A stretch of DNA of 51,780 nt from the IMG/VR virus record IMGVR_UViG_2541047930_000003. One strand, written 5' to 3'. Origin of the DNA: a virus. Its lineage: Duplodnaviria; Heunggongvirae; Uroviricota; Caudoviricetes. The notes under the pieces were generated by a model. The model was not told where the DNA came from. It saw only the letters and a list, made by a program, of their open reading frames with translations, and did not search any database. Below are positions 49,161 through 51,780 of this stretch, piece after piece. Each line of letters opens with the position of its first letter. Position 1 is the first letter of the stretch. Position numbers and translations under genes: made by a program.

Positions 49161-50645
49161 TTATTGTATATCTACTTCAGCATTTCCTGGACAGGATATA
49201 TCTTCTGTTTTCTGTGGAGTGAGCAGGTGATGTACAACTGCTTTATCCACACATAAATTGACTCCGGTAAGAGCTAATGTATGCCCATCACCATTTATTG
49301 TCAGTAACGGGCTGGAAAATTTCTCTGCCATCTTGCGAGCATTAATCCAGGGCGTTGTTGGGTCGTATTTGTGTGCAACAAACAGTAAACCCGAGGGCAG
49401 AACTGTATTTTTCAGGCGAGTTTTGTTCAGGTCGCTATGTATTGGCCACAATTCACAAAAATCAGGTGAATCAGAGCGTCCATTGTCAAAGTTAATAGCT
49501 GGGAAGGCATTCGCAAGAGCGTCTTTTCGGGATTTTCTCTCTTCTGGTGTTAATTTCTCATCTCCCTGATCAACACAAAGGATTACCCCCAAAGCATCGC
49601 TTGACTCTTCTGAGGCTATTGGAGCACTGAGCGCAGTTTCAATTTCATTACTGACAATCCCCTGTGAGAACTGGCGTATGGCAGTTGCAAGGGTTGGCCA
49701 TGATGAACGCCATAATAGAAGGTCTGTTGTTAATGATATGAGTTCATCTGAAGATATATTTTCTCCCTTGCTGTCGATTAAAGGTCTGTGATGCAATTTT
49801 AATAACAGTTCGTGGAACTGAGTTATTGCCTTATCTCTGTCTGAAGAAAGCGGGCAACTTTTTGTACGCGCACACCAGGATGCAAAGCGATCAAACGTTT
49901 CCTGATAACTTTGTGCCTGTTTGAGTTGCCATGTGAAGTTGTCCTCCAGGTCATCAATATCGACGACTCCATCCAGAACGATAGATCTGACGTTGTAAGG
50001 AAAACGTTCTGCATATAAGGCTGCAATTTGTGTTCCATACGAATACGCCACGGCTGTCAGTTGTTTATCACCCAAGGCTTGCCTAATACGATCAATATCA
50101 TATACAGCCTCGTTAGAGCCTATATGGCGAATGACTTCGGCTCCGGTATTATGGATATATGCATTAATTTTATTTAATACTCGTTGCTTTTCGGTTATGT
50201 TTTCCTGAATCTCTGTATCTGATTGCTGGCAGTTTATTGTCGGAGTGGACTGACCGACGCCTCGAGGATCAAATCCAATAATATCCCATGACTCACGAAG
50301 ATTTGTGACTGGCCAGTCAAAGTTAATATAAGGATTTATGCCTGGTAACCCGGGCCCACCACTTATTATCAGGATACTTCCTTTATGCTTGCTTTTTGCC
50401 GGCAATTTTGTCAACGCTAGTTTGACTTGTGATTTTTTTTCATAAGAAGCATCTCCGCCTGTGTCTGTATATTTTAATGGAACAGACAAATAACCACATA
50501 GTAAGTCAGGAGACGGTTTTTCCTCACCAAACCAGTGGTTGAATTGACTGGTCATACAGGATTGCCACTCGATCTGCTGGGCAGATACGGTTACGGGTAG
50601 AAGTAAGGTTAAAACAATCTTGAAATGAGCAATTATCTTTCGCAT
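49161..50645 (-). CDS. Secreted alpha/beta hydrolase, S33 tripeptidyl-aminopeptidase (TAP)-like (494 aa)
   Basis: N-terminal signal peptide; AYSYGTQIA nucleophile-elbow motif resembling the GxSYGT motif of TAP-type S33 peptidases. Confidence 0.55.
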   Translation of the reverse strand: MRKIIAHFKIVLTLLLPVTVSAQQIEWQSCMTSQFNHWFGEEKPSPDLLCGYLSVPLKYTDTGGDASYEKKSQVKLALTKLPAKSKHKGSILIISGGPGLPGINPYINFDWPVTNLRESWDIIGFDPRGVGQSTPTINCQQSDTEIQENITEKQRVLNKINAYIHNTGAEVIRHIGSNEAVYDIDRIRQALGDKQLTAVAYSYGTQIAALYAERFPYNVRSIVLDGVVDIDDLEDNFTWQLKQAQSYQETFDRFASWCARTKSCPLSSDRDKAITQFHELLLKLHHRPLIDSKGENISSDELISLTTDLLLWRSSWPTLATAIRQFSQGIVSNEIETALSAPIASEESSDALGVILCVDQGDEKLTPEERKSRKDALANAFPAINFDNGRSDSPDFCELWPIHSDLNKTRLKNTVLPSGLLFVAHKYDPTTPWINARKMAEKFSSPLLTINGDGHTLALTGVNLCVDKAVVHHLLTPQKTEDISCPGNAEVDIQ

Positions 50646-50829
50646 TGTGCCTCTGAATATCAGTATAAAGATAAAATTTGAATATATTGACCCCTGTGTT
50701 GCGGTAGGGGGCTACACGTTACGGATATTGGTCAAATGAGTACAAAATTAGAGAATGTTGTTTACTTTGAATAGCAGATAAACTCCCCGGGGCTATGCAT
50801 TACCACCGGGGAGATTTTAGTTAACGGTG

Positions 50830-51780
50830 TTAAAAGGTGTACTTAAGACCAGCAGTAGTGATGAAATTATAGTTTTCTATGCCTGCACCATTTTTGCTGT
50901 ATTCAGAAGTATTATCATTATGGTCATAAAGTGAAGTATCACCTTTCTTATTCGTAACCCGATTCCATGCGCCTTCAACATAAACTTTTGCGTTAGGTGT
51001 TACGTAATAACCTGCATTGACTGCAATAGAATAGTAATTTTGGTCTTTGACATTACTGCGATAAGTGATTCTTTTTACACGGGCATAGTGTTCATCGTTA
51101 TCAGATGCTTCTACCCAGCCACTGTATTTAAATGTGCCACCAAACTCAAAATCTTCATAACGGTAACTACCCGTCAGGCCAATATAGGGCATTTTAAAAC
51201 GTTGTTTATAGCCTATTGCTCTTTCTCCATTCGGGATGGAGCCGATATCATCTCTGAATCCCTCGTCAGAGTATATATAGGAACCACCTCTGGCAGTAAA
51301 GCTATAACGGCTTTCCTGATATCCGGCCATAAGCCCCAAGCGGTAATTGGATTCGTTGAGGAGCCAGCCTTTGATATTCAGGTCAAATTCGTTGGCAAAA
51401 TTAAGGCGGGTATCGGGATGTCTGCTTTCATCTGTCCAGATGCCAGGTTTATCTGGGTCCTGCCAGTCACGGTCAATCATATTACCCCCTTTCTGACCGA
51501 GAGTAGTCCAGCCAGCAGCCCCGACCGATACCTGGGGCATCAAATCCCAATTAATTGCACCTTTAATAATTGCAGCGTTATTGAATTTCCAGTCGAGTTG
51601 ACTGACTTTTCGGCCTCCTTCTTCGGCTAGATAAACACGCTCTTTTGTTTTTCCGCTCAGAGTTCCAAGACTAATGTCCGCATTTATGTTGTCAGGAGTA
51701 AACGATAAAGTCTCAGTAGAAGCAAAAGAGCTGATCGCAATAGGGGTTGTCAGGACTATTCCCAGAAGTTTCGCCCGCAT
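50830..51780 (-). CDS. ompT: Omptin-family outer membrane protease (OmpT-like, 316 aa); start codon is the last three bases of the window
   Basis: MRAKLLGIVLTTPIAISSFASTETLSFTPDNINADISLGTLSGKTKERVYLAEEGGRKVSQLDWKF... recognised as OmpT; ends ...AGLKYTF. Confidence 0.9.
   Translation of the reverse strand: MRAKLLGIVLTTPIAISSFASTETLSFTPDNINADISLGTLSGKTKERVYLAEEGGRKVSQLDWKFNNAAIIKGAINWDLMPQVSVGAAGWTTLGQKGGNMIDRDWQDPDKPGIWTDESRHPDTRLNFANEFDLNIKGWLLNESNYRLGLMAGYQESRYSFTARGGSYIYSDEGFRDDIGSIPNGERAIGYKQRFKMPYIGLTGSYRYEDFEFGGTFKYSGWVEASDNDEHYARVKRITYRSNVKDQNYYSIAVNAGYYVTPNAKVYVEGAWNRVTNKKGDTSLYDHNDNTSEYSKNGAGIENYNFITTAGLKYTF

Follow-up and report, generated by a model that had tools for sequence, protein, structure and literature searches.

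The right end of a 51,780-nucleotide stretch of Caudoviricetes DNA (IMG/VR record IMGVR_UViG_2541047930_000003; the whole stretch is called the window here) raises the question of where a toxin-carrying prophage stops. Beyond cdtC, the last gene of a type IV cytolethal distending toxin (CDT-IV) operon, two genes on the opposite strand encode an alpha/beta hydrolase with a predicted signal peptide and an omptin. The first-pass annotation, made from the sequence alone, took them for further prophage morons transcribed convergently to cdtC and placed the right prophage end beyond the window; its strand and positions for both genes match the list of open reading frames (ORFs) exactly. Such a pair has been reported downstream of cdt-IV in strain 28C as rorf1 and rorf2, as summarized in PMC4606577 (citing Toth et al. 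2009, Infect Immun 77:492). Our analysis indicates that the two genes are very probably accessory cargo for lysogenic conversion ("morons"), carried at the extreme right end of a lambdoid CDT-IV prophage of the Rac type at ttcA and comprising an OmpT allele and an exported hydrolase resembling Hip1 of Mycobacterium tuberculosis. The pair would lie between the tail-fibre/cdtABC region and the right attachment site, attR, and may benefit the lysogen.

Four complete Escherichia coli chromosomes match the last 4981 bases of the window at 100% identity, and APEC O1 matches them at 99.3%. Each of these genomes is annotated with cdtA, cdtB and cdtC of type IV, the alpha/beta hydrolase (under that name in every matching genome) and the omptin. 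BLAST alignment of the whole window to the chromosome of L1PEag1 (NZ_CP145513.1) was gapless, with 4 and 9 mismatches (99.96–99.99% identity) that rule out byte identity. This near-identical but not identical genome served as the proxy for the right flank beyond the window. In L1PEag1, intR (window 1–1236, minus strand) adjoins ttcA and opens the element. After it come xisR, recET, kilR, sieB and trkG, the genes for lysis, head and tail, then cdtABC, the hydrolase and, last, the omptin. The element is a lambdoid prophage of the Rac type, integrated at ttcA. Both ends of the window are trimmed to gene boundaries, and the three cdt genes left of the hydrolase were confirmed by Pfam and NCBIfam profiles.

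The Rac-type attachment (att) core, TTGTTCAGGTTGTAYTGTTCTTTCTT, was searched for in the form TTGTTCAGGTTGTA...TTTCTT. With up to 3 mismatches allowed, no copy was found anywhere in the window, including the spacer between cdtC and the hydrolase (49092–49160). In the proxy genome the left copy falls within the 5' end of ttcA, ~100 bp before window position 1. Extension to the right, proposed in the first-pass annotation as a check, recovered the right copy exactly 789 bp beyond the omptin ATG in three related chromosomes (L1PEag1, APEC O1 and 2009C-3133). Because the core is absent from the window and present 789 bp right of the omptin in these relatives, the alignments support a position of both genes inside the prophage, with attR ~0.8 kb past the window end. 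The predicted location of the prophage end thus held.

What follows the right core differs between the three chromosomes. In 2009C-3133 it runs directly into ttcC/uspF, a clean junction that matches the attR of K-12 Rac, the annotated end of that prophage. In L1PEag1 and APEC O1 a 230-bp 3' fragment of a second intR, together with further debris, separates the core from uspF. In NZ_CP145513.1 the interval from 789 bp to ~3.1 kb past the window end holds this piece of intR, part of a DUF1627 gene and a permease gene with a frameshift. The debris represents the relic, in tandem, of an older element of the Rac type. Repeated AAATGGGGCAAA motifs lie in the ~160 bp left of the right core, a stretch that matches the right arm of K-12 Rac at 91.6% identity. 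These repeats occur on both arms of the att core, also just left of window position 1, and are candidate arm-type integrase binding sites.

The plus-strand cdtC ends at 49091 and the minus-strand hydrolase converges on it across a spacer of 69 bp. Neither an att repeat nor a host junction, either of which would set the pair outside the prophage, occurs at 49091–49161; a terminator element lies there instead. The spacer folds with −24.1 kcal/mol (z −3.7) on the plus strand and −18.9 kcal/mol (z −2.95) on the minus strand, where UUUUAUU immediately follows the stem, and this hairpin would terminate the hydrolase transcript. Its 49 bp at 49111–49159 are 92–94% identical to an element just 3' of the ybcY-type methyltransferase gene in phage 2G7b and in the K-12 prophage DLP12, and a slightly longer stretch is 89% identical to an O157 prophage. 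Homology to the hydrolase–omptin block begins at 49160 in phages and at 49151 in plasmids, and that to the CDT-I phage ends just past cdtC. Relative to 2G7b, the methyltransferase gene and tfa fragments are deleted and cdtABC stands left of the kept terminator. On these alignments the spacer is a phage-derived terminator element, not a host junction or att site. The only match of an Rfam search lay on the plus strand at 49067–49142, spanning the cdtC end and the hairpin, and was to the Shigella small RNA (sRNA) CssrB at 38.7 bits (E-value 1.4e-5; gathering threshold 76). Being sub-threshold, this assignment was not accepted; a terminator sequence common to prophages is a more probable source of the match than an sRNA gene.

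Phage genomes carry the same pair. The hydrolase–omptin block is present at 93% DNA identity in the lambdoid phages 2G7b, ev243, Turner, PhiR26_1, PhiR29_1, PhiR30_1 and PhiR49_1. In 2G7b the order is ybcY-like methyltransferase, tfa fragments, hydrolase, ompT and int. The pair thus sits between the tail-fibre region and the integrase gene, in the lambda b-region position, and therefore at the right end of the prophage after integration. In O157:H7 it ends a lambdoid prophage, next to an icd' fragment. The analogy with DLP12 drawn in the first-pass annotation is apt, ompT being the last DLP12 gene, preceded by ybcY-tfaX-appY. The breakpoint of DLP12 against the hydrolase block falls immediately after the ompT terminator hairpin and, since the 2G7b and DLP12 orders correspond, appY is by alignment in the position of the hydrolase. 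The CDT-I phage lacks both genes, and Kati and PhiR68_2 match the omptin part only. With presence defined as coverage of at least 80% of the 2620-bp query, the pair occurs in 1221 of 5426 complete E. coli genomes (22%). A few IncF plasmids carry it at 98.7% identity, next to iroBCDEN and insertion sequence (IS) fragments. G+C content is 0.39–0.43 in the pair and 0.46–0.61 in the tail genes. As to the features of a moron, the omptin has a hairpin and, outside the window, a conserved promoter and PhoP box; the hydrolase has a terminator and no detected promoter. Carriage in phage genomes, the O157:H7 prophage end, low G+C, hairpin terminators, the conserved omptin promoter region and patchy presence together bear out the description as prophage morons.

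The omptin ORF is complete; the window ends with its ATG and therefore excludes its promoter. Its designation as OmpT-like was borne out by Pfam Omptin (PF01278, MEROPS A26; 2e-128, profile positions 1–283 of 283), the NCBIfam omptin subfamily NF008222 (677 bits, cutoff 537) and PDB entry 1i78 (E-value 2e-185). Identity is 91.8% to K-12 OmpT, 70.1% to OmpP and 79.4% to a further plasmid omptin, one of a type that occurs without the hydrolase; ArlC and OmpP are reported to be ~74% identical to OmpT (PMC6854850). Because 91.8% stands against 70% and 79%, the window omptin is, by identity, an OmpT allele and not ArlC or OmpP. An ArlC/OmpTp identity was rejected on these percentages.

The N-terminus, MRAKLLGIVLTTPIAISSFA followed by STE, is the same as in K-12 OmpT and was read as a Sec signal peptide by eye rather than with a predictor. 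Residues 1–60 are identical to K-12 pre-OmpT, as is the C-terminus (...GLKYTF). At 92% identity to 1I78 the protein is expected to fold as a beta-barrel in the outer membrane that presents its active site (Asp83/Asp85/Asp210/His212) to the outside. Pairwise alignment with K-12 OmpT gave 27 differences, none at the four catalytic residues D83, D85, D210 and H212 (mature numbering), which are kept in D-x-D and D-E-H motifs. The differences cluster at mature positions 76–94 and 214–216, flanking the catalytic residues (V82I, Q84R, D214A/P215R/G216V). The allele looks functional and, by analogy with OmpT, would cut at basic sites in cationic peptides and proteins, a cleavage that in the omptin family depends on LPS. 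IncF iro plasmids have the allele at 98.7% identity. The omptin of 2G7b and O157 is the K-12-like allele (98.7% to K-12 OmpT). In 2009C-3133 it is a mosaic, K-12-like but with four C-terminal substitutions, three of them as in the window allele, which suggests recombination between ompT alleles. A second ompT lies elsewhere in the matching genomes (two places per record).

In the proxy genome, the proximal 100 bp 5' of the omptin ATG are conserved with K-12, O157, 2G7b and plasmid sequences. A PhoP box, TGTTTATGGTTTGTTTA, conserved with K-12 ompT, is found 86–102 bp ahead of the ATG and reads on the opposite strand to the omptin gene. It fits the reported reverse-strand PhoP site of ompT, mutation of which abolished PhoP-dependent induction, and PhoP regulation has been reported for ompT, ompP and arlC (bioRxiv 10.1101/2020.02.28.965145). 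PhoP would most likely switch on the window omptin through this box. Between omptin and hydrolase, the ompT terminator hairpin folds with −22.3 kcal/mol (z −3.2) and has a weak U tract, UUUAUCU; K-12 ompT homology ends just past this hairpin (equivalent to window 50784). Neither a sigma-70-like promoter nor a PhoP-box-like site was found in the gap, and the window-wide PhoP-box scan returned 23 matches where ~16 were expected. A promoter and terminator scan of 48900–51780 gave fewer promoter-like sites than shuffled sequence and missed both hairpins, which were established by folding.

The hydrolase ORF is full length and starts with ATG. It matches Abhydrolase_1 (PF00561; 6.6e-33, residues 91–460) and the TAP-like Abhydrolase_4 (PF08386; 4e-15, residues 386–485), both past their cutoffs. 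Its closest solved relative is M. tuberculosis Hip1 (PDB 7sfm; E-value 8.9e-50, residues 21–475), an envelope-associated serine protease and esterase by experiment, with the triad S228/D463/H490 and five predicted disulfides (PMC4022732). An AlphaFold model built with 38 homologues reached a predicted local distance difference test score (pLDDT) of 87 and a predicted template modelling score (pTM) of 0.88. The top six Foldseek matches to this model are Hip1 structures (E-values 1e-29 to 2e-32; TM-scores 0.76–0.84), followed by TnmK1/K2, and the fold with its inserted helical lid fits the solved family members. S202, D428, H455 and the GGPG loop (G97-P98-G99) are invariant in the 38 homologues, which span 29–96% identity, and GGPG aligns with the oxyanion region of Hip1 (oxyanion residue Gly110).

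The N-terminus of the hydrolase, MRKIIAHFKIVLTLLLPVTVSA followed by QQ, was likewise read by eye as a Sec-type signal peptide, and the first 20 residues have low confidence in the model. With the ten conserved cysteines of the family, this signal fits a periplasmic or exported, disulfide-bonded enzyme. The first-pass description of a signal-peptide-bearing S33/TAP-like hydrolase therefore agrees with the profile matches, the Hip1 relationship and the N-terminus; its word "secreted" goes back to the Sec signal, and residence in the periplasm is as likely as release from the cell. We regard the protein as a putative Sec-exported, disulfide-rich serine hydrolase of the TAP/SlpD/Hip1 branch, most likely a periplasmic or envelope peptidase or esterase. 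No characterization of the E. coli hydrolase was found in the searchable literature. RefSeq (NC_049954.1) begins the 2G7b hydrolase at an internal Met and gives it 464 residues. This annotation appears too short, since the reading frame stays open further upstream and there codes for the same signal peptide (MRKIITHFKVVLTLLLPVTVSA...).

Table 1. Features of the hydrolase–omptin region (window coordinates; rorf names as reported for strain 28C).
Feature	Position	Strand	Basis
Hairpin terminator element	49109..49159	none	Folding; homology to phage element
Exported alpha/beta hydrolase, 494 aa, TAP-like/S33, Hip1-like ("rorf1")	49161..50645	-	Pfam, PDB, model
Codon of catalytic His455	49281..49283	-	Invariant in 38 homologues; Hip1 G-T-Q-H-T His
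Codon of catalytic Asp428	49362..49364	-	Invariant in 38 homologues; Hip1 H-D-P-A-T-P Asp
Codon of nucleophile Ser202, A-Y-S-Y-G-T motif	50040..50042	-	Invariant in 38 homologues; Hip1 Ser228 motif Y-S-Y-G-T
Codon 163, TAT (Tyr), lineage-specific C163Y	50157..50159	-	Homologue alignment
Hydrolase codons 1–22, predicted Sec signal peptide	50580..50645	-	Translation read by eye
Omptin–hydrolase intergenic region, 184 bp, with ompT terminator hairpin at 50783–50813	50646..50829	-	Folding
Omptin outer-membrane protease, 316-aa precursor, OmpT allele ("rorf2")	50830..51780	-	Pfam, NCBIfam, K-12 identity

Several observations weigh against reading the pair as functional prophage cargo with these assignments. 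Since the window stops at the omptin ATG, a near-identical genome had to supply the promoter, the PhoP box and attR. Expression of the hydrolase is uncertain, as the gene follows the ompT terminator hairpin and has no recognizable promoter of its own. Plasmid copies of the pair are flanked by IS remnants, and the module therefore moves by more than phage transfer. Position 163 of the window hydrolase is a tyrosine, where each of the 37 other aligned homologues has cysteine, as do the copies of APEC O1, pST70 (IncF plasmid), O157 and 2G7b. The substitution leaves nine of the ten conserved cysteines, probably with one unpaired partner, and may destabilize or impair the window copy; it bears on the integrity of this copy, not on its homology to the Hip1-like family. 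Finally, TnmK1/K2 share the fold and are not proteases.

For this last reason the label "protease" is not secure for the hydrolase, which might be an esterase, lipase or lactone hydrolase, or a non-hydrolytic fold protein, acting on envelope or host lipids or small molecules. Hip1 itself also hydrolyses p-nitrophenylbutyrate and was first named carboxylesterase A, the titles of the TnmK1/K2 entries name a natural product, TNM H, and one phage annotation calls the gene product a "putative lactone hydrolase". NCBIfam proline-iminopeptidase models fall far below their cutoffs (36 bits against 260 for the equivalog), and a prolyl aminopeptidase identity was ruled out on that score. Set against this, the best matches by both sequence and fold are to Hip1, a demonstrated serine protease, with which the hydrolase has in common the triad, the Y-S-Y-G-T motif and GGPG, and the Pfam TAP-like C-terminal domain is present. 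A non-peptidase function is thus unlikely, although a serious contender.

Decay of the hydrolase in the lineage of the window, leaving only the omptin of consequence, is a somewhat weaker contender and in our view doubtful. C163Y, the odd number of cysteines and the undetected promoter would fit a non-functional passenger, as would the carriage of ompT without the hydrolase in K-12 and some phages. The gene is nevertheless full length with its triad and signal peptide intact, and C163Y is a single missense change of a kind, loss of one disulfide, that is often tolerated.

Lower still we place a functional coupling of the two proteins, whether as surface endoproteolysis followed by periplasmic trimming or as mutual processing. 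It is equally improbable that the hydrolase serves as partner of the omptin in a two-protease envelope-defence cassette, with surface cleavage of cationic peptides preceding periplasmic processing. Coupling is suggested by the recurrence of the omptin-then-hydrolase order on one strand in two diverged lineages, the OmpT type in 1221 genomes and the OmpP type on 156 IncF plasmids; the OmpP-type pair is 78.7% (hydrolase) and 70% (omptin) identical to that of the window. Yet a terminator hairpin separates the genes, each occurs singly (omptin in K-12 and Kati, hydrolase in pVir68), and the hydrolase homologues of ~50% identity that were checked in Salmonella, Serratia and Budvicia have no omptin neighbour. 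The linkage could be mere inheritance, and the evidence against a functional link is the stronger. Were the coupling real, lambdoid phages (OmpT type) and IncF plasmids (OmpP type) would disseminate the cassette, and a hydrolase widespread in E. coli, O157:H7 included, would have been overlooked as the homologue of a mycobacterial protease of immune evasion.

On pRHB07-C22_2 the ompP–hydrolase pair lies ~0.9 kb from the alpha-haemolysin genes hlyCABD (hlyA, a type I secretion ATPase gene and hlyD), and the hydrolase of pVir68 that lacks an omptin is a paralogue. The chromosomal homologue of Budvicia diplopodorum (53% identity) is near genes for an EptA-type phosphoethanolamine transferase and a Fic protein.

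That the prophage ends between cdtC and the hydrolase, leaving the pair as host genes or a separate islet, is very improbable: its opposite orientation to the late operon, the strong hairpin parting it from cdtC and the IS-flanked IncF copies would be compatible with this, but the window and the spacer at 49092–49160 hold no att core, the spacer is a phage-derived terminator, the core lies 789 bp right of the omptin in three genomes, and phage genomes carry the pair between tail fibres and int.

Two further observations concern other parts of the prophage. Annotation of a related genome places additional Rac-type cargo (trkG, tRNA-Gly, tRNA-Thr, hok/gef, a doc-type toxin and a queH-like gene) at window ~18400–19900 and ~16300–16500. 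At 42970–43407, off-diagonal BLAST matches revealed direct repeats inside the tail-fibre gene, each ~249 bp long, with an offset of 189 bp and ~84% identity.

The pair is ordinary, already described prophage cargo, and the toxin operon adjoins a common phage- and plasmid-borne OmpT module rather than anything new. The arrangement is that of rorf1/rorf2 in strain 28C, a likeness drawn from the published description and not from the 28C sequence; APEC O1 carries it at 99.3%. The summary of rorf1/rorf2 given in PMC4606577 mentions neither attR nor a relationship to Hip1 nor C163Y. Our additions are modest: the position of attR, the junctions of the cdt insertion at the level of terminators, the assignment to an OmpT allele with near-catalytic changes, the Hip1 relationship and C163Y. 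The prophage does not end at cdtC, and the right boundary of the CDT-IV element is set ~0.8 kb past the window. Practical value is small, beyond flagging the Hip1-like hydrolase as an uncharacterized candidate envelope protease in about one-fifth of complete E. coli genomes.

Compared with K-12 OmpT (protease VII, PDB 1I78), the window omptin has the same signal peptide, catalytic residues, PhoP-box promoter, terminator hairpin and last-gene position. It differs in residing in a Rac-type prophage at ttcA instead of DLP12, and in having the hydrolase rather than appY as its downstream neighbour. The modules of 2G7b, ev243 and PhiR29_1 and of the O157:H7 prophage at icd agree with it in order, strand and position before int/attP or at the right end. 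They keep the ybcY-type methyltransferase gene and tfa left of the hydrolase, where the window has cdtABC; their integration sites differ, and their omptin is K-12-like. OmpP and ArlC/OmpTp belong to the same family, and the pairing recurs for ompP, which is followed by a hydrolase paralogue on IncF plasmids. The hydrolase is homologous over its full length to Hip1 (Rv2224c; 5UGQ, 7SFM), at 27–28% identity and a TM-score of ~0.8. With Hip1, Streptomyces TAP and SlpD/SlpE it has in common the Ser-Asp-His triad motifs, the GGPG loop, the helical lid, ~10 cysteines and probable export to the envelope. Unlike Hip1 it is a Gram-negative, predicted periplasmic protein borne by phages and plasmids, the Hip1 substrate GroEL2 is without an obvious counterpart, and the window copy is short of one cysteine.

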